A stretch of 64,000 nt of DNA. Source: Escherichia coli phage AZ21. Below are positions 1,205-35,366 of the stretch, in pieces. Numbering within the stretch: the stretch's first letter is position 1; each line of letters begins with the position of its first letter. Below the pieces are notes generated by a model. The model was not told the DNA's origin, did no database searches, and saw nothing but the letters and a program-made list of their open reading frames with translations. A program made the position numbers and the translations under genes. The DNA is taken from the sequence record LC788708.1; one strand, written 5' to 3'.

Positions 1205-1720
1205 ATGGCTAAGCAGAAAAACGCAAAAACTCAAGCAGCTCCGGCAGTTAAAACTTTCCCGAAGACTGAGGCTAATCGCAAAGCTCGGCTGGAACGTCAC
1301 CTGCGTAAGCATCCTACAGATGCTCAGGCTGCGCAAGCACTGAATAATCCGGCTCCGATTCGTCAGAAGCCTAAAGCTAAAAATGCCACCCGTAAATCCT
1401 ACAAAATGGTTATGTATGTAGAAAATTACGGCCACAAATCTGTCCCAGTTTCCCTGAGCTTTAACGCTGGGGCTGAATTGTTCTCTCGTAATGGTATGTC
1501 TATGAAAGACTATGAGAAGGCAGTTAACCAGAAGCGTAAACCAACAGCAGATGTATTGCGCGATACTCGTGGACAGTTTGGTTCTGTTAAGCCAAGTATC
1601 TTTGGCGTAGAGTATAGTAAAGATAATGTTCGTGCTCTGTGTTACGGTGTAGGTATTAAGTTCACGGGTGATTCTGCTCGTAAATCTGCTAAACCAGCTC
1701 GCAAGCGTAAAGCGAAGTAA
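1205..1720 (+). CDS. hypothetical basic protein
   Basis: 171 aa, Lys/Arg-rich termini; promoter and RBS AAAGGAAAACAAATAATG; followed by GGGGCGAAAGCCCC hairpin. Confidence 0.5.
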   Translation: MAKQKNAKTQAAPAVKTFPKTEANRKARLERHLRKHPTDAQAAQALNNPAPIRQKPKAKNATRKSYKMVMYVENYGHKSVPVSLSFNAGAELFSRNGMSMKDYEKAVNQKRKPTADVLRDTRGQFGSVKPSIFGVEYSKDNVRALCYGVGIKFTGDSARKSAKPARKRKAK

Positions 1721-1784
1721 TAGATAAATAGGGGCGAAAGCCCCTACAATCGACTAATTCTCTAACTAATCAAGGATATTTTTT

Positions 1785-2000
1785 ATGTTCTCTAAGAAAC
1801 CACGTTCTGTTACTGAAATCGTTGCTTCCTTTACCACTATCACTGATGAGCTTCAAGCTCGTATTGAGGCTGATCAAAAAATCGCTGCTGATATTCAGAA
1901 ACAGCAGGAAGAACTCGCTTTAAAGTTGGCTGAAACCAACAAGAGTGAAAAATCTGCCCAAACTATTATGGAAAATATCCTTAAACTGCTGGGCAAGTGA
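1785..2000 (+). CDS. hypothetical protein (coiled-coil)
   Basis: 71 aa ORF between two GGGGCGAAAGCCCC hairpins. Confidence 0.45.
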   Translation: MFSKKPRSVTEIVASFTTITDELQARIEADQKIAADIQKQQEELALKLAETNKSEKSAQTIMENILKLLGK

Positions 2001-2009
2001 TTTAAATCA

Positions 2010-2034
2010 GGGGGGGGCGAAAGCCCCTCTTATT
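2010..2034 (+). terminator. hairpin terminator
   Basis: GGGGGGGCGAAAGCCCCTC stem-loop then TTATTT; same GGGGCGAAAGCCCC hairpin at 1731-1744. Confidence 0.5.
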
Positions 2035-2044
2035 TGGAGAAACT

Positions 2045-2281
2045 ATGCGTAATTTTGTAGCAAAGAATGATTTTAACCGTGCTAGCACTCATAAGTCCGC
2101 TAGAGATTATACACGACTTTCTAGTCATGAGGTAATGGATACCTGTTATGAAGAGCTGGAAGGTAGCTGGAATGAGTGTCCCGACTTCTCTATGGAAGAG
2201 AACTGGGATGTCAGTGAGGATATGCTTCCTGGTTTTAAAGACCCCAAGAAGTGGGAGTCTATTAAAGAGACAGCTCTTTAA
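2045..2281 (+). CDS. hypothetical acidic protein
   Basis: 78 aa ORF, RBS GGAGAAACTATG. Confidence 0.4.
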   Translation: MRNFVAKNDFNRASTHKSARDYTRLSSHEVMDTCYEELEGSWNECPDFSMEENWDVSEDMLPGFKDPKKWESIKETAL

Positions 2282-2309
2282 TAGTTTTCTACACAATAAA
2301 GGATAAGTT

Positions 2310-3011
2310 ATGAAAGTAAAACCATTTGGTATGCTAGATATTGAATCTCTAGGAACTCCAGGAGATTGTGGTACTACCCATATCGCAATGCCTTCATTCG
2401 CTTTTGTGGCTATGCATGGAATTGATAAAGACCCTGATCTAGTATTTGTTACTTTAGATGTACAAGATCAACTTAATTCTGGTGCCAAAGTTACAGCATC
2501 TACTCTAGCATTCTGGATGGATCAGGCTAAACATAGCCCGTCTGCTATCCACATTATGGAAGCTATGAATGAGCGTAATCCAAAACTGGTTGCCTTCCAA
2601 AATGGTAAACATCATTGCACTAATAAACTTGGCTCTAACCATGCTGCCTTCTCTATGGCTCAAAATATTATGGAGTTGGCTCTAGGCGAAAATGCTTTGT
2701 ATTATGGCAATGGCCCAGAGTTTGATATGACTATCTACTCTGCAAACACTTTCCATGCTGGAACCAATGAAGAAATAGTTCCGTGGAAATTCTGGAACTT
2801 GGGTAATGTTAGATCTCTTCGTAATCTCTGGATGCAAACTGGCTATAGTTATAAAGCTCTAGAAACCGAAGGTATTAGCTGGGCAATAGCTAAAATGGAG
2901 AAGATGGACACCATTCGTTATGGGATCTATCCGGTTAAGCACGACCCAGCATTCGATGCCCTAGTTGAGAGCTATTGTGTTGCAGCTATGATCGAAAAAA
3001 TGAAAATTTGA
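2310..3011 (+). CDS. DEDDh-type 3'-5' exonuclease-like protein
   Basis: 233 aa; MLDIESLG (Exo I D-x-E), YGNGPEFDMTIY (Exo II), KHDPAFDALVESY (Exo III H-x4-D) by eye. Confidence 0.55.
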   Translation: MKVKPFGMLDIESLGTPGDCGTTHIAMPSFAFVAMHGIDKDPDLVFVTLDVQDQLNSGAKVTASTLAFWMDQAKHSPSAIHIMEAMNERNPKLVAFQNGKHHCTNKLGSNHAAFSMAQNIMELALGENALYYGNGPEFDMTIYSANTFHAGTNEEIVPWKFWNLGNVRSLRNLWMQTGYSYKALETEGISWAIAKMEKMDTIRYGIYPVKHDPAFDALVESYCVAAMIEKMKI

Positions 3012-3012
3012 T

Positions 3013-3041
3013 TTGCTTCCGGCTCCAAAATTCTGTATAAT
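3013..3041 (+). promoter_or_regulatory. T5-type early sigma70 promoter
   Basis: TTGCTT-17-TATAAT, leader ATATTCATAAATTTGAGA as in T5 PN25-class promoters. Confidence 0.65.
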
Positions 3042-3081
3042 ATATTCATAAATTTGAGAAAACAATAAAAGGAAAACAAAT

Positions 3082-3264
3082 ATGCCAGTATCTAAAAATG
3101 TTCGTAAAAATGGTAAGAAAGCTACTCGTAATCTGGGTATCCGTCGTATGGCTGAACGTCAATCAGGTATCCAGAAAATCTTTGATCTGCTAAATCGTGC
3201 TAATCCTAAAATTGATAACAGTAACGATACTGTTCTGCGCACCCTGCTGGCAATTGGTCTGTAA
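3082..3264 (+). CDS. hypothetical basic protein
   Basis: 60 aa ORF behind T5-type promoter and RBS AAAGGAAAACAAATATG. Confidence 0.4.
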   Translation: MPVSKNVRKNGKKATRNLGIRRMAERQSGIQKIFDLLNRANPKIDNSNDTVLRTLLAIGL

Positions 3265-5958: not shown

Positions 5959-6030
5959 GCCGTCCTAGTATAATTGGTATTATCAAGCCGTAACTGGTGG
6001 AAGATGTAGGTTCGAATCCTACGGTCGGTA
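5959..6030 (+). tRNA. tRNA-like element (anticodon arm not resolved)
   Basis: GTAGG-TTCGAAT-CCTAC T-arm and 7-bp acceptor pairing (one mismatch) 70 nt downstream of promoter; no clean anticodon stem found by eye. Confidence 0.35.
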
Positions 6031-7851: not shown

Positions 7852-8148
7852 ATGAAACGCATTGTACTTGCATTGACTCTAGTATCTACTTCTGTATTTG
7901 CTGCTCCACAACAGGAACTTTGTCAAGTTCAAGTTTGTAATAAGCTAGAACGATTTACTTTGGATATTTGGTCACACATTAAAGATAATATGGGTGAGCA
8001 ATGTTTTGATATTGTTCTGCCAAAAGAACAAGCTGTTCCTGGTGCTGTTCTCAGCTCAGAATCACGTTGGTGGCAAGGTTCTTCTATCAATCCAACTAAG
8101 AAGTCAGTGACACGTATCAAACAAGTGTATCAGTGCAGTGTTCAGTAA
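7852..8148 (+). CDS. small secreted protein
   Basis: Signal peptide MKRIVLALTLVSTSVFAAP; RBS GAGAGAGGAATCAAATATG; upstream in-frame extension overlaps promoter so start set at 7852. Confidence 0.5.
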   Translation: MKRIVLALTLVSTSVFAAPQQELCQVQVCNKLERFTLDIWSHIKDNMGEQCFDIVLPKEQAVPGAVLSSESRWWQGSSINPTKKSVTRIKQVYQCSVQ

Positions 8149-8216: not shown

Positions 8217-8735
8217 ATGACTGTTGACGAGTTAAAACAACATCTTTTATCTAGGGGCTTTGATAGTGATAAGTATCACTGTTGGCTCTCTCCACATGGA
8301 TGGTTAACAGTTCCACTGTATGATTTCTCTGGCATGTTACGTGGATATCAAACATATAACCCTAGTGCAGCTAAAGGTCATGGAAAATGTCCTTCTGAAG
8401 CTAAATATTTTACGCATTCTTCTACTCAATGTCTATGGGGTTTAGAAACTCTTACAGGTAATGAAGACCTAGTATTAGTTGCAGAATCTGTATTTAAAGC
8501 TGTGGCACTACACAACGCGGGATATCCCGCACTAGCAATGCTAGGATCTTCCCCTAGCAAAGCACTGCTAAAGCAGCTAAAATTACAACCTTTTAAAGTA
8601 GTAGCCGTAGGCGATAATGATTCTGCTGGTGAGAAGTTTGCTAAAAAACTAAATGGGTTTACTTCCCTCATGGATTTAGATGAAATGAATACAGAAAACT
8701 TGAAAAATTTTCTTGCCATGAAGCTAAATTTCTAA
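8217..8735 (+). CDS. Toprim-domain (DnaG-like) protein
   Basis: 172 aa; VLVAESVFKAVALHNAGYPALAMLGS...VVAVGDNDSAGEKFAKKL resembles primase Toprim E...DxD motif; no zinc-ribbon or polymerase domain. Confidence 0.45.
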   Translation: MTVDELKQHLLSRGFDSDKYHCWLSPHGWLTVPLYDFSGMLRGYQTYNPSAAKGHGKCPSEAKYFTHSSTQCLWGLETLTGNEDLVLVAESVFKAVALHNAGYPALAMLGSSPSKALLKQLKLQPFKVVAVGDNDSAGEKFAKKLNGFTSLMDLDEMNTENLKNFLAMKLNF

Positions 8736-8741
8736 TATAAT
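8713..8741 (+). promoter_or_regulatory. promoter embedded in 3' end of Toprim gene, driving tRNA-Ser/Met
   Basis: TTGCCA-17-TATAAT then TTCATAAATTTGG immediately before tRNA-Ser. Confidence 0.55.
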
Positions 8742-8854: not shown

Positions 8855-8932
8855 GGTTCTCAAGCTCATTTGGTATGAGCCGTCGCCTCATAAGCGAAAG
8901 GTAGGCAGGTTCGAATCCTCCGGGAGCCACCA
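8855..8932 (+). tRNA. tRNA-Met/Ile-type (anticodon CAU)
   Basis: Acceptor GGTTCTC/GGGAGCC (G-U pairs), D-stem GCTC/GAGC, anticodon loop CTCATAA, T-loop TTCGAAT, CCA. Confidence 0.65.
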
Positions 8933-8951
8933 AATTAAATAAGGACAACTA

Positions 8952-9140
8952 ATGGAATTATTCATAGTTTCTATTAAATTTGCACAAGATAGAGAACATT
9001 CGGACGAGTTTAAACAAGGGTACAGACTAGTAAAGGCTACATCTGAACTACATGCTATGGACAAAGTAGTAGACTATATGTATAAAGTAGAAGACGTTTA
9101 CTACGTCAATGCTTTAGAAGCCTCAAAAGTAATTAACTAG
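8952..9140 (+). CDS. hypothetical protein
   Basis: 62 aa ORF immediately after tRNA pair, RBS AAGGACAACTAATG. Confidence 0.4.
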   Translation: MELFIVSIKFAQDREHSDEFKQGYRLVKATSELHAMDKVVDYMYKVEDVYYVNALEASKVIN

Positions 9141-9148
9141 GAGACTAT

Positions 9149-9334
9149 ATGTCCAAATTTCAAGAACTCAAGCAAGAGCTAGAAGAGTGTGCCTGCCCAA
9201 AATGCTTCGGAGTAGGTGAGTGGAACGATGCTGAACCCGGTGATACACGGTATAATACATACGTTTGTACATATTGTAATGGTTCTGGTATTAATCCTGA
9301 ATGTGGTATTTCTCTAGACATTGAGCGAGGTTAA
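9149..9334 (+). CDS. small zinc-finger protein (DnaJ-type CxxCxGxG repeats)
   Basis: 61 aa; CPKCFGVGE and CTYCNGSGI motifs; RBS AGGAGACTATATG. Confidence 0.45.
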   Translation: MSKFQELKQELEECACPKCFGVGEWNDAEPGDTRYNTYVCTYCNGSGINPECGISLDIERG

Positions 9335-9674
9335 GATGGATATTTTTACTACTCCGGCAATAAACCTTTTAGGTGTTGGCTTGTTCCAAGCTACGGTGTA
9401 TCGTACTGATGATTCTACTGATGTGGTAACGTTCATCGTACCTGAGTTCTTCCTAGAAAAGTTCTTTGAAGAGTTTGAGCAGTTCCGTGAAGAACACAAT
9501 GCTCATTCCGATATGGAAGATCTAGCAGCTATGTTCCCTGCGGTTTACGGCTATATCTTTGAAGGTAATGGCCTAGATCTTAATAAATCTGAACTCGTTG
9601 AACTTAACTGGGGCATCAATTTTGAAGTTGGCTCTCCATTCCCTCGATATTTCCAGGGTTTAGAGATTCGCTAA
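9321..9674 (+). CDS. hypothetical acidic protein
   Basis: 117 aa ORF overlapping stop of upstream gene. Confidence 0.45.
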   Translation: MSEVKMDIFTTPAINLLGVGLFQATVYRTDDSTDVVTFIVPEFFLEKFFEEFEQFREEHNAHSDMEDLAAMFPAVYGYIFEGNGLDLNKSELVELNWGINFEVGSPFPRYFQGLEIR

Positions 9675-9682
9675 GATTACAT

Positions 9683-9759
9683 GGGGGTGTAATCGAATTG
9701 GCATAGGTACTGGACTTAAAATTCAGGTTTTGTGGGTTCGAATCCCACCACCCCTACCA
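9683..9759 (+). tRNA. tRNA, anticodon read as UAA (Leu-type) on short-variable-arm scaffold
   Basis: Acceptor GGGGGTG/CACCCCT, anticodon stem CTGGA/TTCAG with loop CTTAAAA, T-arm GTGGG-TTCGAAT-CCCAC, CCA; isotype uncertain. Confidence 0.6.
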
Positions 9760-9774
9760 AATTAAGGAAATAAA

Positions 9775-9897
9775 ATGAAAGCTATTAAGAAAGCACTGCG
9801 TAAATTTATGTATTGTCGTTTTCATAGCATCAAGGCTTCAACTAATGGTACTACTTACGATCGCTATGATCCTAAGTTTGGCTTACATTCTAAATAA
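9775..9897 (+). CDS. small hypothetical protein (40 aa)
   Basis: Short ORF with RBS AAGGAAATAAAATG right after tRNA. Confidence 0.3.
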   Translation: MKAIKKALRKFMYCRFHSIKASTNGTTYDRYDPKFGLHSK

Positions 9898-9910
9898 CTG
9901 GAGAAAACAA

Positions 9911-10117
9911 ATGGCTAATCCTGAAATTACGGCACAACGCTTTATGCTGAAAGGAATTATTGCTGAAGCAGGCATGACAGAAGAAGTTGCAGATTTTCAA
10001 AAGCAATTCCTCAATATTCTCACTCAAGCCAAAGAGCTAGGAGAGAAAGAACATGGCGCGGCTATTATGGCAATCACATTGGTTGGGCTTGATCTGGCTG
10101 AAGAATCAGGAGTTTAA
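9911..10117 (+). CDS. hypothetical protein
   Basis: 68 aa from ATG with RBS GGAGAAAACAAATG; in-frame upstream extension lacks RBS. Confidence 0.4.
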   Translation: MANPEITAQRFMLKGIIAEAGMTEEVADFQKQFLNILTQAKELGEKEHGAAIMAITLVGLDLAEESGV

Positions 10118-10612: not shown

Positions 10613-10700
10613 GGGCGTTTATTCCGTAAGTGGTAGCGGAGGGGATTGTAAATCCCTGGTCATTGCGACTCGAGTGGTTCGACTCCATTAACGCCCACCA
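10613..10700 (+). tRNA. tRNA-Tyr (anticodon GUA), type II
   Basis: Acceptor GGGCGTT/AACGCCC, anticodon stem GGGGA/TCCCT with loop TTGTAAA, long variable arm, T-loop TTCGACT, CCA. Confidence 0.7.
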
Positions 10701-10717
10701 AATTAAAGGTAAAGGAT

Positions 10718-10909
10718 ATGTATATTGATCGGATAATTCAAGAAGCTGCAAATAGGGGTATTATACAGTTGGGTTCACCCGCTGATATAAATAAAGATCT
10801 AATATTAGAAAGCCTCACATTTGGTACAGCTAACTTTGGTCGCGATAGTAATCGTCGATATAGCTTGAAGTTATCTGCACTATCTTTTATCAAGTATAAC
10901 AAATTATAG
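10718..10909 (+). CDS. hypothetical protein
   Basis: 63 aa ORF between two tRNAs, RBS AAAGGTAAAGGATATG. Confidence 0.3.
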   Translation: MYIDRIIQEAANRGIIQLGSPADINKDLILESLTFGTANFGRDSNRRYSLKLSALSFIKYNKL

Positions 10910-27903: not shown

Positions 27904-28641
27904 TCGGATTCGCACATGCTCTAGGGCAGTTTTTCATCTACTATAAATATCCTAGGCCGGTTTTCCTATACAGGGCGGTTATGGGGAGGGCGGTTATTTC
28001 TAGACAATAAAATTTACTCTTGTCAGTCCAGAAATTACTGTCGGATTTGCACATTGTGTTTCTAGAAATTTATGGTCGGATTTGCACAATTGCCTAAGTT
28101 TTTAGGAACATATAATCTCCTGAAAATGGCAGCATTATTTCGGGCCGAAGGCCCATGATTGCCTGAGTTTTTTTAGAGACACAGAAATTTTCACTTGTCA
28201 AGCTATTTTGCCCCATTTTGCTAATAAAATTTTACTTTATCTCCCCTAATCTCAAATTAACCCAAATCTTCTCAACTCTTCTCCAAAATCCCCGCAAATC
28301 AGGTGCTCCGCACCAAACATGCGCCCCTCCCGTAGTTCCCCCAAGTTTCTCTCGATCTCTCAACTTCTCCCCAAACTCATACAATCACACACCCTCCAAT
28401 CGAAGTCACAAAAATCTTGTCGGATTCGCACAAATAAACCCATGTCGGATTTGCACATATTCTAGTTAATTCCACAGGATTGATGCGCAGCATCGGATTG
28501 CTGGAGTTTTTGGGAGAATTCATTGTCGGATTCGCACACTATAAAAATTTTTCGGGTCGGATTTGCACACTACCAAAAATTGTCGGATTCGCACATACAC
28601 GCCCACGCGTAATCCATGGGGGCAAATGTCGGATTTGCACA
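27904..28641 (+). repeat. array of 9 direct copies of GTCGGAT(T/C)(T/C)GCACA
   Basis: Copies at about 27904, 28040, 28075, 28419, 28444, 28525, 28557, 28582, 28628, same orientation, irregular spacing, non-coding. Confidence 0.8.
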
Positions 28642-28647
28642 AAAGCG

Positions 28648-28663
28648 CAGGGCAATTGCCCTG
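28648..28663. repeat. perfect 16-bp palindrome CAGGGCAATTGCCCTG
   Basis: Exact reverse-complement symmetry. Confidence 0.8.
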
Positions 28664-28705
28664 CTTGCCTGAATGCGAATGATAATGAGAATCATTTGCA
28701 TTTAA

Positions 28706-28858
28706 AAAGCGGAATGAGAATGATAATAATTCGCATTTAAGAATGGAAGTGAGAATTATTCAGGAAGTGAAACGATTCTCATTTAAAAAGTGAAACGATT
28801 CTCATTTAGAAAGTGAAACGCGAATGATAATGATTCGTATTTAAGAATGGAAGTGAGA
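28706..28858 (+). repeat. two about 42-bp direct repeats flanking a 23-bp tandem repeat
   Basis: ATGATAAT.ATTCG.ATTTAAGAATGGAAGTGAGAA at about 28706 and 28817; GTGAAACGATTCTCATTTA(A/G)AAA x2.5 at 28767-28822. Confidence 0.75.
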
Positions 28859-28874
28859 AACACTATTATTTAAG

Positions 28875-28964
28875 TTATCCACAGACTTATCAACAGCACG
28901 ATTTGACTTGACAGAATCCTAGCCATTTTGAGGCGTTATCAACAGACTTATCAACAGCTTATCC
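28875..28964. promoter_or_regulatory. DnaA-box cluster
   Basis: TTATCCACA at 28875-28883 plus three TTATCAACA variants within 90 bp. Confidence 0.55.
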
Positions 28965-28984
28965 TACTGTATAAATATACAGTA
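28965..28984. promoter_or_regulatory. LexA (SOS) box, near-consensus
   Basis: TACTGTATAAATATACAGTA, i.e. CTGT-N8(AT-rich)-ACAG, one spacer difference from the E. coli consensus. Confidence 0.6.
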
Positions 28985-29177
28985 TTCCTATGCAGTGAAT
29001 AATTCTAATATACAGCTAAAACGCTCTCAAACGCATTCTAACGCGTTTAATTTTGGTGGGGATACTAAAACAAGGGCAAAATTGGAGGAGGCTTGAAAAT
29101 TAGTTAGCTCGCTAATGATCACACACGGCGACACGTAACACCCTAACCATTAGCAGGCTAACCATCGCGGGCGTGGT

Positions 29178-29200
29178 CAAATGAGAATGATTCTCATTTG
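29178..29200. repeat. perfect inverted repeat CAAATGAGAAT-G-ATTCTCATTTG
   Basis: 11-bp arms around a single central base. Confidence 0.8.
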
Positions 29201-29350
29201 TGGATTGGGGGCGCTTCCTGATAGTTGCGCCCCGTGATTATTATAGTAGGGGGCAACCGTTACGCTTTGCCCACTCCCGCCACTCATCTTGGTGCCTAGA
29301 CTTGCGACGGCGTACTAAAAACCGCTTGTACCAGTGATTAAACCATCGTT

Positions 29351-29554
29351 TCATAAATCCTCCTCCGGTAGTCGATGCGTGATCTTTTCCTCCTCCCCAT
29401 AGGAATCCACCAAATACTGATAATAACCATCGTGATCATAAATCACTTTATCATATTCCCCACGCTCGACCGCTTGCCGATTTTCCAACGTATCAGGCAC
29501 AAAGAAAGTATCAACGGTAACAGTAGTTTTAGTTACAACAATTTTATCACTCAT
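29351..29554 (-). CDS. hypothetical small acidic protein
   Basis: 67 aa; last gene of tightly packed minus-strand operon; start overlaps upstream tiny ORF. Confidence 0.45.
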   Translation of the reverse strand: MSDKIVVTKTTVTVDTFFVPDTLENRQAVERGEYDKVIYDHDGYYQYLVDSYGEEEKITHRLPEEDL

Positions 29555-29680
29555 AATGCCATCGCCCCTAGAATGAGAATGATTATCAATATCATTGTGA
29601 AGCCATTACCAAATCGTAAACGCTGGGAATGTTTCCCAGCGGTATTATTAGACTTATGGCTTTGTGTTTTTCGCCACCAG

Positions 29681-29881
29681 CTATTCACGGTAGACGCTCC
29701 ATCCGTCTAGCTTCCATTCTTCCCCCTTGCGAATATTGAAAAACCAATCATTAAAATTGTAACCATCTTCTGACATGATCACGCCGTTTTCTTTCATGTA
29801 CAAAAATTCATCACTAGTAAAATATTGATTACTAACTTTAAAACCTTGTTTCATTTTTTCTAGTGCTTCATCTTTAGTCAT
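29681..29881 (-). CDS. hypothetical small acidic protein
   Basis: 66 aa; ATGA-type overlap with upstream gene. Confidence 0.45.
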   Translation of the reverse strand: MTKDEALEKMKQGFKVSNQYFTSDEFLYMKENGVIMSEDGYNFNDWFFNIRKGEEWKLDGWSVYRE

Positions 29882-30222
29882 TGCGCCACCTTTCGAAACG
29901 CTGTTTCAATACTATCCGCAGTGGATTGAATATATGCGCCTTTGAGTATCAGCCGCTCGGTGCATATCTTGCGAAAAATATTAATAAAATCGTCCTCATT
30001 TTCTGCGATTAATGCCTCACCCATAACCTGAACGTCGCAAGATGCAAAGGTCAAAAATTGAAACGCTAGTTCACGGGCAACGACCGCATTGATTTTATAA
30101 TGCGCCTTGCCTTCATAGATATTAATAACGCCCTTATAAGCTGGCGAAAGCTGATTTAAGTAGTTTGCTAATAATGCCGGACGGCAATTAGCAACAAAAC
30201 GATTGCCCTCATAAATAACCAT
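29878..30222 (-). CDS. hypothetical protein
   Basis: 114 aa, minus-strand operon member. Confidence 0.5.
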   Translation of the reverse strand: MVIYEGNRFVANCRPALLANYLNQLSPAYKGVINIYEGKAHYKINAVVARELAFQFLTFASCDVQVMGEALIAENEDDFINIFRKICTERLILKGAYIQSTADSIETAFRKVAQ

Positions 30223-30349
30223 TTGATAGTCTCCCGATTAGATAGCCAGATAATAACATAAAGATCCCCAATAAAAGAGGATCATTCTTAAATAAGGTGG
30301 CGGTAAAACCGCCAACCATTGCAAGGAGAATAACAATAATGCTTTTCAT
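30209..30349 (-). CDS. small membrane protein (46 aa)
   Basis: MKSIIVILLAMVGGFTATLF hydrophobic ORF; ATG overlaps stop of upstream gene (ATGA) and its stop overlaps next start. Confidence 0.3.
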   Translation of the reverse strand: MKSIIVILLAMVGGFTATLFKNDPLLLGIFMLLSGYLIGRLSNGYL

Positions 30350-30558
30350 AGTACCCCACGAAACGCAGCGTAAAAGGTGGCAAAGTGTTTAACTGTTTCA
30401 GCAATCACGTTGCCGCGCTTATCAAATTTCTTTTCTGTAACACGAAAGGCATTTTTATTACGTGCTACATATTCGATTTTACAATCTTCCCGCTCGAACG
30501 TGTTAACATCCACCAGCTTAAAGCCTTTCGAACGTGCAAGAGAAACGTTGCGGATCAT
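30346..30558 (-). CDS. hypothetical basic protein
   Basis: 70 aa ORF in minus operon. Confidence 0.45.
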   Translation of the reverse strand: MIRNVSLARSKGFKLVDVNTFEREDCKIEYVARNKNAFRVTEKKFDKRGNVIAETVKHFATFYAAFRGVL

Positions 30559-30560
30559 TT

Positions 30561-30743
30561 TTATTCCCCTTTACTAGTCATGCAGCCCAGCAGATAAGAA
30601 AATACAGCGATGCCAGCACCAATAGTAACCATTGGTTTTATATTTACTAAACCGCAATAGGAATCCTGAATACCATAAGCGGTGGCGAAAAGAGTCAAAA
30701 TAGCGCCCAAGATACCCGCTAAAATAGCTCGAAAAATAACCAT
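30561..30743 (-). CDS. small membrane protein
   Basis: 60 aa with two hydrophobic helices; preceded by GGGGCG-loop-CGCCCC hairpin. Confidence 0.45.
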   Translation of the reverse strand: MVIFRAILAGILGAILTLFATAYGIQDSYCGLVNIKPMVTIGAGIAVFSYLLGCMTSKGE

Positions 30744-30792
30744 TTGTAATACTCCTCTAGTTAGTGGGGCGAAAGTAACGCCCCGTTATTAA

Positions 30793-31023
30793 TTACATTA
30801 AAATAATTTTTGCCGCTTGTTTTTTGGTACAGTGTTCCGCTTTCAGGGTGTCCAGCAAAAAGCCCGCCGTTTGCTGATCGATTTTATCGGCATTATATAG
30901 TTCTTGGATGGTGTTATAAGTTTTAGCAATGCCGTATTCTTGTACCATTTCTTGAATAATCCAGCGATTTGATACCCAGCCTTTACCAGTGAAAAGAGCG
31001 TCAGAAGAAGAGTAAGCAACCAT
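30793..31023 (-). CDS. hypothetical protein
   Basis: 76 aa from ATG with RBS GGAGGCTTAAAATG (minus strand); longer track ORF lacks RBS. Confidence 0.45.
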   Translation of the reverse strand: MVAYSSSDALFTGKGWVSNRWIIQEMVQEYGIAKTYNTIQELYNADKIDQQTAGFLLDTLKAEHCTKKQAAKIILM

Positions 31024-31086
31024 TTTAAGCCTCCAAATTTTTGGGAAAATTTTCAACCGTCCTCAAACGGTGTAAAGGCATTATAA

Positions 31087-31115
31087 CAAAAAAGGCCGCC
31101 ATAAAAGGCGACCTT
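31087..31115 (-). terminator. rho-independent terminator (minus strand)
   Basis: AGGTCGCC-loop-GGCGGCCT hairpin followed by TTTTTT on minus strand, right after the stop of 31130-31624. Confidence 0.5.
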
Positions 31116-31129
31116 TACAAAACTTTACA

Positions 31130-31624
31130 TTAAACTACTTGTAAGGATTCAATATTGAAACATCGTTTCAGTTCGTCATGCAAAACGGCATATTCATCCC
31201 ATCGGGTACTATCAGGAATATAAACAAGCTGTTTTAATCGGTTTGCATATATTACCGCTTTGTTATCAATTATCTCGACGCCACCATATTTAATAATTAA
31301 TTTCATGACGGAATTAATAGGATCGCCGCCGTTTACATATGCGCCGGATTTACTTAATTGATAATGATAAAGGCTTGCATATACGTTTTCATTTTCATAC
31401 CATTCGCCAGTCTCTTCGTCTTCATAGCCATCGCTACCAAAACGAGAAGCATTATCAACAGCCATTTCATGAGCAAAAGCGTCCAGATCCGTACCAGCAG
31501 GAACAAAATATTCCTCGGTATTCCCTTCCCCGCAATAGCCAGTATGACAATCGACTAAAATGATCATATCATGTTTAGCCTTGCTCACTTCCCCTAGCGA
31601 GAAGCCGTATTTTTCTTCTAACAT
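31130..31624 (-). CDS. hypothetical acidic protein
   Basis: 164 aa from ATG with RBS GGAGAC; acidic run DGYEDEETGEWYENENVY. Confidence 0.5.
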   Translation of the reverse strand: MLEEKYGFSLGEVSKAKHDMIILVDCHTGYCGEGNTEEYFVPAGTDLDAFAHEMAVDNASRFGSDGYEDEETGEWYENENVYASLYHYQLSKSGAYVNGGDPINSVMKLIIKYGGVEIIDNKAVIYANRLKQLVYIPDSTRWDEYAVLHDELKRCFNIESLQVV

Positions 31625-31688
31625 AATTAGTCTCCTATTAATTAACAAGGAAATAGTAAAGCGGGGAAATAATCCCCGCTAGATATTA

Positions 31689-31922
31689 TTACTCGTTTTC
31701 GGTGTTAGTGGTAAAAGTAGAGATATCGATACCTTTTACCATTTCATCGATCATCTCAGCGATGTTAAAACTTTGCACCATTTCTAACATTGCCGCTTCC
31801 ATAGCCGCCCCTGCTACCGCTTTCGCTTTCTGATTAGTCGGGGCGTACTGGTCAACCGCTACACTCAGCAGGTTAGCGATCACTACACGACCAATCGGCG
31901 TATCAATATAGCCTTTGATCAT
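31689..31922 (-). CDS. hypothetical protein, possibly C-terminal part of a frameshifted gene
   Basis: 77 aa ORF overlapping end of 31903-32694 by 20 nt; reachable by +1 shift at an A7 run. Confidence 0.4.
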   Translation of the reverse strand: MIKGYIDTPIGRVVIANLLSVAVDQYAPTNQKAKAVAGAAMEAAMLEMVQSFNIAEMIDEMVKGIDISTFTTNTENE

Positions 31923-32694
31923 AAACGGTGCTTTTTTTAGCCGCTACTTTCGTGATTTGAGTTAGTGCAATTTTACCAGCTTCCAGTTTTGCAGCGTTTA
32001 CAACAGCGGATTTATTAGCGGCAACGATATTAGCGATCTTGGTCATGGTATTTTTTCCTTTGTTTTCAGTAGTTTGAGTATTAACGCTTTGAGTGTTAGA
32101 GCTTACAACCTGTTTTTCAATATTGTCAACTGGTTTTAGTGTAAATCCAGCATTTGCAACGTTTGATTCATTCCCATACTCTAAATAATCACTAGGGATC
32201 AACATGTTGCCACTAGCGCGTTCAAAACATAACACGCCAGTTGTAGAAATTACATTACTATCAGCACTTTTGTAATTAGCTGATAGTTCACGCCAAATGC
32301 TAGTTAATAACGATCCGACACTATCAGTCCTGATATTACTTACTTTTGTTGCTGTTACTTGCTCTTTTTCTTGCACGTTATATAATCGCGCAATGTAACC
32401 ACTATTAGATTCACTATAACCAACAATGATAAAATCAATATCTCTTCCACGTTGATTGCGGAAAATGTGATAATCACGGTTGAAAATTACTAGCGCCCTT
32501 TTCTGGTCTAGTAATTGTGTGAAATCTTCAACTGAATAATGAGTACCCTCATCGTCTAAAATTCTATCATGAATCTTTTCGATAATAGTAGCGGTATGCT
32601 GTACGCTTGCCGCGCTACTACCCTCTAACAGATTGCGCAAACTGCCTTTAATAATAGTGGCGTTTGCTGGTACTGCAATTCTTACAGTAGACAT
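31903..32694 (-). CDS. hypothetical protein (first gene of minus-strand operon)
   Basis: 263 aa ORF, Ser/Thr/Asn-rich middle, Ala/Lys-rich C-terminus; ends just after A7 homopolymer. Confidence 0.5.
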   Translation of the reverse strand: MSTVRIAVPANATIIKGSLRNLLEGSSAASVQHTATIIEKIHDRILDDEGTHYSVEDFTQLLDQKRALVIFNRDYHIFRNQRGRDIDFIIVGYSESNSGYIARLYNVQEKEQVTATKVSNIRTDSVGSLLTSIWRELSANYKSADSNVISTTGVLCFERASGNMLIPSDYLEYGNESNVANAGFTLKPVDNIEKQVVSSNTQSVNTQTTENKGKNTMTKIANIVAANKSAVVNAAKLEAGKIALTQITKVAAKKSTVYDQRLY

Positions 32695-32960
32695 TTTATT
32701 TTGTCTCCCTCGTTAATCGGTGAGTGAATGATAAGGGTAATTTTCTAGCATAGGCAAATATTATTTTACTTTTTTATTTTCCTTGCCTAGCGTCTAATTT
32801 TATGCTAACCGCGCAGCGGTGCAATAAAGAGCAAACCACGGCGAAGCCACCAGCCCGACGCATTGAGGCTTTACTTTAATATTACCTTACAGCGTTTAGC
32901 TCGTTAGAATGCGTTTTGGGCCACTTAAAATTGATTGCAGTTGTTAACACTACCTTTCTA

Positions 32961-32980
32961 CCCTGTATATTTATACAGTG
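32961..32980. promoter_or_regulatory. LexA (SOS) box
   Basis: CCCTGTATATTTATACAGTG with perfect CTGT-N8-ACAG core, about 270 bp upstream of the first minus-strand gene. Confidence 0.55.
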
Positions 32981-32988
32981 GAATAACC

Positions 32989-33397
32989 TGTGGATAAGTC
33001 TGTGCAAAAGTCCTTATATCACCGCCTATCGTGTCAAGTTATTTTGTGCTGTGGAAAACATTGTGGATAACTTAAATGATAGTGCTTCTCACTTAGGCTA
33101 ATGATTTCTTATAGTTATTATTTCTCATTAATTTATAAGTATATTATATATTATCAAATAGTTAGTTGGCTAATGAGATTTTCCGTGATTAATAGTCTGC
33201 TAATAATTCAGGTCGTTACAATCCACCAGCATGATTATCATTCTAGCAATTATTAGTCTGCTATCTTTCCGATACATACTAACAAATAAAAGTCAATTAA
33301 TTTATTTCATAAAATAAGTAGTTATCCACTGGAAAATAAAAGTCAAGTGGATAACTAGGAAAATTTCATTTTTGCTTTTGGGGATAAGTTATCAACA
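32989..33397. promoter_or_regulatory. DnaA-box cluster
   Basis: TGTGGATAA at 32989 and 33062, TTATCCAC at 33322, GTGGATAA at 33347, TTATCAACA at 33389. Confidence 0.55.
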
Positions 33398-33799
33398 AGG
33401 CTAGAATGCGCCTAAAACGCTCCAGAACGCGATGAAGTTTTTAGCCACCCCATCATAAGGGGATAGGCCGTTTATCGCTGCCACGAGCTTTTTAGATTTT
33501 GTCAAGTAGGGGAAAGCAAATATAAATGAAAAAATTACTTGCCTATTTGCTTTATTTTGTGGTATTCGCGCCCGTTTCTTTTAATTTTAGGCCGTCGCCG
33601 GACGTGGTGCGGTGAATTTTGTCTTTACGTTTCTTTACAAAAATAAGGTTGCGCCATTTTCGGGAATCCCCTATTATTTATCACGTAGGGCGGCAATGAC
33701 GAACTACACGGCGGGAAGTTTACCGCCACGCTCTTTAAAAATTGGGTACATCTTAAAGCCTATCGGCGGTAAACTTATTTATTATAAGGAATCGACGAT

Positions 33800-34012
33800 A
33801 TGAAACAAACTTTATTGATCACTGGCAAGCCTATTAAGGCACTAGATAGCAAAACAAAAAATTTGTTGACAGTAGCGCAAAGATCGGTAAAATACCGATT
33901 CACGCAGTACAAGAAAGACCGCCAGCAAGGTTTAGAAATGATCTGGCGAAACATTATGATTGACTTGAAAGAAAATCATAAAAAACTGCAAAAAAATTAT
34001 TTGACAACCTAG
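33800..34012 (+). CDS. hypothetical ORF (doubtful)
   Basis: 70 aa ORF but contains internal TTGACA-17-TAAAAT promoter-like sites; may be non-coding. Confidence 0.2.
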   Translation: MKQTLLITGKPIKALDSKTKNLLTVAQRSVKYRFTQYKKDRQQGLEMIWRNIMIDLKENHKKLQKNYLTT

Positions 34013-34233
34013 CCGATAGGTTTTAAGATGTACCCAGTTCGATAAGAGCGATAACTTGATAAAATTTGACGGTCGGTGCTTACCATAATGCGCCCCGCCC
34101 CCTAACGGGATATAGCGGCCTACGTGGAGTTCTTTAAATTGATTATAGCGGCGAGAGGATTGTTACTTATTACCTGCTAGTATTTTCTAGTAGGTAATAA
34201 GTAACAATCCATCAAATAACTGGAGTTTATATT

Positions 34234-34485
34234 ATGCAAAACGTTATTACCGCGCCTAAAATTGGTCAATCCGTCTTTATTCCTTTCGTTACTAAAACGG
34301 ATGAATTAACCGGAAAGGCCGAACGTATTAAAGGTGCGGCGCTTATGCCGTTCGATACAATCGACGCGGTATATGCTGAAAATGAACGCAGTAACAACGG
34401 CAAGCCCGTTTTTAGCGTTCGCGTTAAATCCGGCGATGTTGTAAAGGTTGTTCAACGCAACGAAAAATGGGAAGCTGTGTTGTAA
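34234..34485 (+). CDS. pre-early hypothetical protein
   Basis: 83 aa, RBS AACTGGAGTTTATATTATG; followed by perfect 9-bp hairpin. Confidence 0.5.
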   Translation: MQNVITAPKIGQSVFIPFVTKTDELTGKAERIKGAALMPFDTIDAVYAENERSNNGKPVFSVRVKSGDVVKVVQRNEKWEAVL

Positions 34486-34583
34486 TTTAGTGTTAACTTT
34501 ATATCCCCCTTATTTCAGGGGGATATAACGATTAACATTAAGTTAATCTAATCCCTTAAATTAAACTAATAGGAGTTTTTACC

Positions 34584-34991
34584 ATGACTAACGCAAAAAC
34601 CGCAAAATTCGCATGGAATGAAGAAAACACTCAGAAAGCTGTTACCATGTACCAGCAGTTAATCAACGAAAACGGTTTAGATTTTGCAAATAGCGACGGC
34701 CTGAAAGAGATTGCAAAAGCAGTAGGCGCGGCCTCCCCCGTATCCGTTCGGTCAAAATTGACCAGTGCAAAAGCCTATCAAAAAAGCGATAAGCCGCGTA
34801 AAGTTGGCGGCGGTAGCTCTGTGCGTAAAGCTCACTATGTGCGAGTAATTGCAAAACACGCTATCGATTCCGGTATTATCAAAGACGCCGATGATCTGGC
34901 AAGCCTTGAAAGTGCTAAACTGGAAACGCTGGACGCGGTGGCGCAACTGTTAGGCGTTGCCGATGAAGTAAAACAAGCCGTAGGTGAATAA
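34584..34991 (+). CDS. pre-early hypothetical protein
   Basis: 135 aa, RBS AGGAG; followed by GCCCCCT-loop-AGGGGGC hairpin. Confidence 0.5.
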   Translation: MTNAKTAKFAWNEENTQKAVTMYQQLINENGLDFANSDGLKEIAKAVGAASPVSVRSKLTSAKAYQKSDKPRKVGGGSSVRKAHYVRVIAKHAIDSGIIKDADDLASLESAKLETLDAVAQLLGVADEVKQAVGE

Positions 34992-35081
34992 TAGTTATAC
35001 CTTGCCCCCTTCTAGTGAGGGGGCACTAATATAACTGTTTAGCGATAGTTATTTTCTTCCCTTAAATCAGGAGTTTTAAAA

Positions 35082-35279
35082 ATGGTTTTCTTCCCTACTG
35101 AATCTTTGATTCTAGGCTTGTTTATTATGGCGGCCTCATTATTGTTCGCTTATTTTCAGAATGATTTAGATTCGTATTATTTTAAACGTAAATCTAAATT
35201 AGCAAAACGTTTGGGCTTGCTTTGTTTTATCGCTGCCGTTGCCTGTGGTGTTAGTTCGAGTCTAGTACCATTAAATTAA
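35082..35279 (+). CDS. small membrane protein
   Basis: 65 aa with two hydrophobic helices; RBS AGGAG. Confidence 0.4.
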   Translation: MVFFPTESLILGLFIMAASLLFAYFQNDLDSYYFKRKSKLAKRLGLLCFIAAVACGVSSSLVPLN

Positions 35280-35366
35280 TGTTGCAAATTATAACGCCTA
35301 TTATTCGAGGCGTTATATTTGGCAATATTGCCATTATTAACCTAATCCCTTTAATGGAGTTTTATT

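Follow-up and report, generated by a model that had tools for sequence, protein, structure and literature searches.

Bacterial tRNAs for leucine, serine and tyrosine belong to class II and carry a long variable arm. In the class II tRNA-Leu(UAA) genes of E. coli (leuZ) and of phage T4 and Pseudomonas phage 201phi2-1, this arm is a stem-loop of 13–18 nucleotides (nt) within a gene of 85–87 nt. The 64,000-nt stretch of Escherichia coli phage AZ21 DNA analysed here (LC788708.1; hereafter the window) carries at 9683–9759 on the + strand a tRNA-Leu(UAA) gene of 77 nt, in which GUUUU stands in place of the stem-loop. Like its three class II counterparts, the gene has the UAA anticodon, the discriminator base A73, a Leu-type D arm, the A35–A38 run, and A15 together with a U that the alignment places at the final position of the variable region; position 32 is C in the window gene, T4 and 201phi2-1, and U in leuZ. 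The class I architecture of this tRNA is a real exception among bacterial tRNA-Leu, which as a rule are class II, and how it can work is explained by the known identity rules of leucyl-tRNA synthetase (LeuRS).

Two other systems invite comparison. The minimalist E. coli tRNA-Leu variants of LeuRS identity studies likewise lack the long arm and keep A73 and the D/T-loop tertiary pairs, and such arm-less tRNA-Leu was charged (Larkin et al. 2002, Asahara et al. 1998 and Tocchini-Valentini et al. 2000, summarized in the 2023 tRNA-identity review PMC9976931). These variants are laboratory constructs, some of them also without the anticodon arm, whereas the phage gene is natural and looks like their natural equivalent. 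Animal mitochondrial tRNA-Leu(UUR) also places a UAA anticodon on a short-variable-loop scaffold, its leucine identity resting on A73 and A14 with no need for a long arm (PMC9976931); however, it belongs to another genetic system, is served by another synthetase and is structurally loose, making it an analogue and not a relative. Short-arm phage tRNA-Leu was described nowhere in the literature searched, which may have missed earlier accounts; the gene itself already bears the annotation tRNA-Leu in hundreds of public records. What it offers is a natural class I tRNA-Leu with the complete E. coli LeuRS identity set, apparently a counterpart of the laboratory finding that the arm is dispensable.

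Architecture of the tRNA-Leu(UAA) gene

ARAGORN calls a 77-nt tRNA-Leu with anticodon taa at exactly 9683–9759 (+), one of the six tRNAs it finds in the window; the Rfam tRNA model RF00005 matches the gene full length at 9683–9756 with 57.4 bits (gathering score 29; E = 7.7e-11). No other tRNA of the window scores as high on RF00005, and the anticodon loop assigned by the model agrees with that of ARAGORN. A sequence-only reading of this DNA had proposed a 77-nt type I tRNA with a UAA anticodon in the loop CTTAAAA, and both programs as well as direct reading agree with it; the Rfam covariance model returned neither another anticodon nor a pseudogene, the two outcomes that had been named as speaking against the proposal. 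The description of the gene as an atypical isoacceptor also holds: a tRNA-Leu(UAA) body sits on a short-variable-loop scaffold in the tRNA region of a T5-like phage.

The cloverleaf is complete, with a 7-base-pair (bp) acceptor stem and D, anticodon and T arms; none of the conserved bases U8, A14, G18G19, U33, U54U55C56 and A58 is missing. The acceptor stem pairs GGGGGUG (9683–9689) with CACCCCU (9749–9755), as read from the sequence and the Rfam alignment; its first pair, G1·U72, recurs in leuZ and leuU of E. coli as well as in tRNA-Leu(UAG) of Vibrio phage JSF12. U8 and A9 lead into the D arm (9692–9708), which in alignment with tRNA-Leu genes is of the Leu type: a 3-bp stem (AUC/GGU), G13·A22, and a 9-nt loop (AAUUGGCAU, of the form AAUUGG.A.) that provides A14, A15 and A20a and in which G18G19 follow after four loop bases. 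The entire D arm reads GAAUUGGCAUA, compared with GAAUUGGUAGA or close variants in E. coli tRNA-Leu. In the anticodon arm (CUGGA-CUUAAAA-UUCAG, 9710–9726), for which sequence, ARAGORN and RF00005 concur, a 7-nt loop holds U33, the A36A37A38 run and, at 9717–9719, the anticodon UAA, which is of the leucine type (NAG or YAA) and is placed identically by ARAGORN and the Rfam alignment. A class II arm would have at least 13 nt and form a stem-loop; the variable loop here, GUUUU at 9727–9731, has 5 nt, as the alignment gap shows, and its last base, U48 (9731), can form the Levitt pair with A15. The T arm (GUGGG-UUCGAAU-CCCAC, 9732–9748) was read from the sequence and RF00005 and includes U54, U55, C56 and A58, and the gene closes with A73 and an encoded CCA (9756–9759). 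The long-arm tRNAs of the window, tRNA-Ser and tRNA-Tyr, were called by ARAGORN at 94 nt and 88 nt, respectively.

The gene was aligned with six kinds of E. coli K-12 tRNA-Leu gene, T5 tRNA-Leu(UAG) and the 87-nt tRNA-Leu(UAA) of 201phi2-1. In length the gene departs from the 87-nt tRNA-Leu genes only by a single clean gap of 10 nt, which falls at the variable arm. The body that remains after masking of the anticodon and removal of the variable region was also compared with the 1386 unique tRNAs, of every isotype, in the fetched loci. Only tRNA-Leu appears among the 20 nearest neighbours, and 40 of the nearest 50 are tRNA-Leu. These neighbours include the long-arm tRNA-Leu(UAA) of 201phi2-1, with a body identity of 0.80, and that of T4, with 0.74; the best non-leucine tRNA is at 0.74. 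Judged by its sequence, the gene encodes a leucine tRNA stripped of the extra arm, the class II arm having apparently been reduced to a 5-nt loop. Derivation from tRNA-Phe(GAA) by a G34U change (CUGAAAA to CUUAAAA) was considered and rejected, both the D arm and the body as a whole being Leu-type.

Leucine identity and decoding

For E. coli LeuRS, A73 is crucial, neither the anticodon nor the long variable arm is needed, and tRNA-Leu variants without both arms are still charged (PMC9976931). Tertiary pairs that join the D loop to the T loop are also required; in vitro selection found the A15–U48 Levitt pair, G18G19 and A20a to be essential for leucylation, with no correlation between leucylation and the sequence or folding of the arm (PMC9976931). 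All of these published identity elements are found in the window gene: A73 at 9756, A15 at 9697, G18G19 at 9700–9701, A20a at 9703, U48 at 9731, and U54, U55, C56 and A58 at 9737, 9738, 9739 and 9741. The bases for A15–U48, G18:U55, G19–C56 and U54:A58 are all present, a statement about bases and not about three-dimensional contacts. The CUUAAAA loop, in addition, fits the published determinants of TrmL, namely a pyrimidine at position 34, A35 and A36A37A38 (PMC9976931), and modification of the anticodon loop, of the cmnm5Um34 and ms2i6A37 type, is predicted.

Host LeuRS would most likely charge this tRNA with leucine, and it would then read UUA and probably UUG; overall, we consider it likely that the gene encodes a functional, LeuRS-charged UUA decoder. 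A LeuRS of the E. coli type recognizes A73 and the D/T-loop elbow (A14, A15–U48, G18G19, A20a and U54–A58), and the arm can be lost because neither it nor the anticodon is read by this enzyme. In some other hosts, haloarchaea among them, LeuRS does read the arm (PMC9976931). That tRNA-Ser and tRNA-Tyr of the same arrays keep their arms fits the use of the arm by seryl- and tyrosyl-tRNA synthetases (SerRS and TyrRS). The loss would, on this evidence, have been tolerated rather than selected for. A compact, anticodon-independent scaffold charged by LeuRS could also serve in suppressor or recoding work.

Codon use was determined for 63 long open reading frames (ORFs) of the window (GC content 38.5%) and, by the same procedure, for 50 kb of E. 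coli K-12. UUA is the commonest leucine codon of the phage ORFs, at 28.3% of leucine codons and 22.8 per 1000 codons, compared with 11.0% and 11.5 per 1000 in E. coli; AGA stands at 28% versus 4.8%, and AUA at 24% versus 6%. The window lacks a block of T5 (28,125–35,333, approximately 7.2 kb with about 21 tRNA genes), the gap falling at window 10707–10896, between tRNA-Tyr and tRNA-Met; a comparable spontaneous deletion of 8.6 kb is on record for a laboratory T5 stock (PMC12475279). Left in the window are Arg(UCU), Ser(GCU), a CAU tRNA (Ile2 in T5), Leu(UAA), Tyr(GUA) and Met(CAU), among which the Arg, CAU and Leu tRNAs correspond to AGA, AUA and UUA. As the tRNAs kept after loss of most of the T5-type cluster read these three codons, a role in codon supply gains support: the most likely function is provision of a rare-codon decoder by way of host LeuRS.

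Short-arm tRNA-Leu genes elsewhere and possible reasons for arm loss

Of 454 matching phage records, about 290 contain the 77 nt at 100% identity; nearly all come from T5-like Salmonella and Escherichia phages, mostly with the annotation tRNA-Leu, and at least 80% of the length of the gene is covered in 340 phage records. Neither a host nor a prophage copy turned up in 5,426 complete E. coli genomes, where the only matches were 23-nt T-arm segments on plasmids; capture of an E. coli host gene was rejected on this basis.

At the place beside tRNA-Ala that in T5 is taken by the 85-nt tRNA-Leu(UAG), other Demerecviridae have a short-arm tRNA-Leu(UAG) of 77 nt; Salmonella phages RN29 and Spc35 and Vibrio phage JSF12 are examples. 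Short-arm tRNA-Leu genes of other phages resemble the window gene in length (74–79 nt), variable loop (5–7 nt), Leu-type D arm, A73, U48 and proximity to long-arm tRNA-Ser and tRNA-Tyr genes, but differ in anticodon (UAG, GAG, CAA or CAG) and in their acceptor and anticodon stems, with body identities to the window gene of approximately 0.65–0.82. A strict pattern (Leu D loop, UAA or UAG anticodon loop, class I spacing to the T loop) matched 43 IMG/VR contigs, and at 29 of these sites ARAGORN gave a clean tRNA-Leu of 75–78 nt. Several arrays contain two or three consecutive short-arm tRNA-Leu genes with differing anticodons (tag, gag and taa in locus L014; tag, caa and taa in L035). In the IMG/VR pattern loci tRNA-Ser (83–92 nt) and tRNA-Tyr (82–86 nt) are always long; across all fetched arrays tRNA-Ser measures 83–94 nt, save for a doubtful call of 74 nt in T5, and tRNA-Tyr 82–93 nt, versus 74–79 nt for most tRNA-Leu. 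At some pattern-matching sites, the only tRNA-Leu call is of 67 nt (L016, L029, L031 and L048) or 70 nt (L020, L042 and L045) and has its start, according to ARAGORN, within the D arm expected there; such calls may represent tRNAs reduced still further or 5′ ends that were miscalled. Short-arm tRNA-Leu genes may be misjudged by isotype-specific tRNA annotation.

An ungapped alignment of 20 diverse 74-nt short-arm tRNA-Leu sequences, covering five anticodons and for the most part not selected by the pattern, is invariant at U8, A14, A15, U17, G19, A20a, A35, U48, G53, U54, C56, A58, C61 and A73. Standard pairs fill 99.8% of the cloverleaf cells and 17 of the 20 pairs show changes on both sides, values reached by none of 500 shuffles; pairing falls to 36–43% when partners are slid by one to three columns. 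By these measures, the short-arm tRNA-Leu family behaves like working tRNAs.

The same strict pattern was applied to one genome per species from 185,579 bacterial and archaeal species. Its 28 matches comprise 15 contigs with true short-arm tRNA-Leu, five class II genes and eight sites without a tRNA. The five class II matches, from Balneolaceae, are false positives, being normal 88-nt tRNA-Leu genes with TTCGA inside the variable arm. Eleven of the 15 true cases lie in dense arrays of 9–27 tRNAs, mostly in filamentous cyanobacteria, and the others on contigs from metagenome-assembled genomes. In a further IMG/VR scan for tRNA-Leu(UAA/UAG), with the variable region unconstrained, 25 of 115 (22%) were short-armed among the matches listed, where the median locus had 13 tRNA genes for short-arm and 3 for long-arm tRNA-Leu. 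Short-arm tRNA-Leu thus appears to be common in phage and mobile tRNA arrays, and we infer that the short-arm fraction of cellular tRNA-Leu is far below 1%. The cyanobacterial arrays, from Oscillatoriales and Microcoleus genomes (L057, L064, L065, L068 and L075–L077), hold up to four short-arm tRNA-Leu genes (CAA, UAA, CAG/GAG and UAG). Mobile tRNA arrays are linked to homing endonucleases, as in phages (PMC8421152). Arrays of this kind, with 16–27 tRNAs and, in our scan, up to four tRNA-Leu genes of 75–77 nt each, differ from the present locus in being chromosomal or plasmid-borne and not part of a T5-like phage; the main text of PMC8421152, which describes long tRNA arrays, makes no mention of short-arm tRNA-Leu.

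Several points weigh against a LeuRS-charged UUA decoder that lost its arm without selection. The minimum-energy single-sequence fold is not a cloverleaf (−24.7 kcal/mol, z = −1.22); this is common for tRNAs and so uninformative, and the covariance model and comparative data are relied on instead. The E. coli codon reference takes in ribosomal protein operons and is not a genome average. T5 itself (NC_005859) was searched and has no tRNA-Leu(UAA): the HNH endonuclease gene hegA (9380–10063 in the T5 locus, L002) replaces window 8942–9752, which holds three small ORFs and the tRNA, and homology to T5 resumes at 9753, within the last 7 nt of the gene. This arrangement suggests an exchange of homing-endonuclease cassettes with a junction at the 3′ end of the tRNA and, since T5 manages with hegA in its place, the tRNA is dispensable in at least some settings. 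The sole tRNA-Leu of T5 is the 85-nt long-arm tRNA-Leu(UAG), and it is this gene that the amber-suppressor tests in the T5 annotation concern; these experimental notes are inapplicable to tRNA-Leu(UAA), a gene that T5 lacks. Finally, neutral arm loss predicts short arms in core cellular tRNA sets, where they are nearly absent, which indicates that selection differs between phages and cells and raises the question of streamlining, relaxed selection or evasion of tRNA-directed defences.

The T5 arrangement, with a replacement boundary inside the 3′ end of the tRNA, could also mean that the gene has left translation and is decaying or kept as a processing signal or homing-endonuclease target, and the region does contain other tRNA-like elements of unknown function, such as that at window 5959–6030, which corresponds to the T5 RNAX region. 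We nevertheless hold this to be very unlikely: the gene has the highest tRNA score in the window, a perfect cloverleaf and every universal tertiary position intact, it is identical in the approximately 290 records although its flanking DNA is only 77–81% identical to T5, and the wider short-arm family shows the strong compensatory change expected of working tRNAs. Also very unlikely is a tRNA that is not charged with leucine, either because another synthetase takes it, with UUA and UUG partly recoded, or because it is a poor substrate for every synthetase. The class I shape does take away one of the marks by which tRNA-Leu differs from class I tRNAs, and C2–G71, an antideterminant of E. coli tRNA-Leu against SerRS (PMC9976931), is G2–C71 here; however, the latter change should not matter because SerRS relies on how large the long arm is (PMC9976931). 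The LeuRS identity set is complete and is conserved across short-arm tRNA-Leu genes with the anticodons UAA, UAG, GAG, CAA and CAG, which would be expected only if an anticodon-blind LeuRS is their common reader. Among other E. coli synthetases, PheRS depends on G34, LysRS on U35 and ValRS on C36, and IleRS, TyrRS and MetRS also have anticodon determinants; UAA matches none of these, and the G3–C70 pair excludes AlaRS. Recoding, moreover, would damage the whole phage proteome, as UUA is its commonest leucine codon.

Adaptation to escape host anticodon nucleases, which the sequence-only reading had suggested, found no support. The anticodon loop differs from that of leuZ only at position 32, and C32 is also present in the long-arm tRNA-Leu(UAA) of T4 and 201phi2-1, so the loop is not distinctive of this gene; the stems of the phage gene and leuZ differ in sequence. 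The missing arm is more simply explained by the fact that E. coli LeuRS does not use it (PMC9976931). Arm loss might be adaptive in a broader sense, if the short shape escaped a host tRNA-directed defence or toxin that recognizes tRNA-Leu or class II tRNAs and need not act on the anticodon; the phage tRNA, still a LeuRS-charged decoder, would then replace destroyed host tRNA-Leu. This we consider improbable, though there is evidence in its favour. Short-arm genes are enriched in phage and mobile arrays (the 25 of 115 IMG/VR matches listed, with medians of 13 versus 3 tRNAs), compared with 15 contigs across 185,579 cellular genomes under the stricter, short-loop-requiring pattern. Type I-A retrons of E. 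coli hit the other two class II tRNAs, Ec78 depleting tRNA-Tyr and FORC82 all four tRNA-Ser, and T5 encodes a tRNA-Tyr that resists Ec78 (PMC12475279). Phage tRNAs that neutralize PARIS and retron defences are cited in PMC12475279 and PMC12916289. The literature also cites PARIS as cutting in the anticodon loop or stem. A defence recognizing class II features is conceivable, and arm loss would then be a way out open only to tRNA-Leu, because LeuRS, which ignores the arm, would still charge the shortened tRNA, whereas tRNA-Ser and tRNA-Tyr would be barred from it by synthetases that need the arm. It is correspondingly doubtful that short-arm tRNA-Leu is a recurrent, selected trait by which a leucine decoder is hidden from an arm-recognizing host tRNase or toxin. 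A limited literature search found no nuclease or toxin of enterobacteria directed at tRNA-Leu or specific for the variable arm; in the same phages, the arms of tRNA-Ser and tRNA-Tyr are retained although both are known retron targets, the FORC82 retron cleaving T5 tRNA-Ser as well (PMC12475279); and enrichment in arrays is equally expected from relaxed selection combined with deletion bias.

Genomic setting and further observations

Positions 1–25000 of the window are 100% identical to Escherichia coli phage AZ23 (LC788707.1, Tequintavirus) save for one 1.84-kb stretch. The extra 1.84 kb of the AZ23 record contains nadR-pnuC, an NAD salvage regulator/kinase and a nicotinamide riboside transporter, between tRNA-Arg and tRNA-Ser (1512–3246 in the AZ23 locus, L001, opposite approximately 7856–8146 of the window), and coordinates in the two records do not correspond one to one.

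A promoter-like site upstream of tRNA-Ser (TTGCCA-17-TATAAT, 8713–8741, + strand) matches 11 of 12 consensus positions and lies at the place equivalent to the annotated T5 promoter P15b. No terminator-like site was found on the + strand between it and tRNA-Leu(UAA). A candidate transcript starting there would comprise Ser, Ile2(CAU), three ORFs, Leu, three further ORFs and Tyr, which are probably co-transcribed. With a promoter-like site and no terminator-like site following it on this strand, tRNA-Leu(UAA) would probably be processed from a polycistronic early transcript, being transcribed together with neighbouring small ORFs and tRNAs and cut out with its encoded CCA.

The CAU tRNA at 8855–8932 (+) is a tRNA-Met according to ARAGORN and the AZ23 record, and the syntenic T5 gene is annotated as tRNA-Ile2(CAU). 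As tRNA-Ile2, it would read AUA after lysidine modification, which fits the 24% share of AUA among isoleucine codons of the phage. The tRNA-Tyr gene (10613–10696, +) appears in the Rfam scan only as a sub-threshold tRNA-Sec match (33.2 bits; gathering score 47), presumably an effect of its long arm and not a sign of a selenocysteine tRNA. A seventh tRNA-like element at 5959–6030 (+) scores 35.5 bits on RF00005, above the gathering score, without an ARAGORN call; its alignment skips 18 nt at the anticodon arm. It lies in a region homologous to the T5 feature 'RNAX, stable RNA with unknown functions', for which ARAGORN gives a doubtful 74-nt tRNA-Ser(act).

Phage arrays with short-arm tRNA-Leu often co-encode transfer-messenger RNA (tmRNA), for example with the tag peptide GINKALSNFFGFAEEMPLAA or DEMSTMTFDSLMDFIGADYAVAA; the IMG/VR contigs that bear one are L021, L030, L032, L034, L039, L040, L041, L050, L053 and L055. 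Odd tRNA calls in the arrays include an anticodon UUA, which reads the stop codon UAA, a tRNA-SeC(tca) and the four-base anticodons ctct, taaa and tgaa (L033 4571–4648, L035 6147–6221, L064 5268–5346, L071 4954–5032 and L076 4065–4141).

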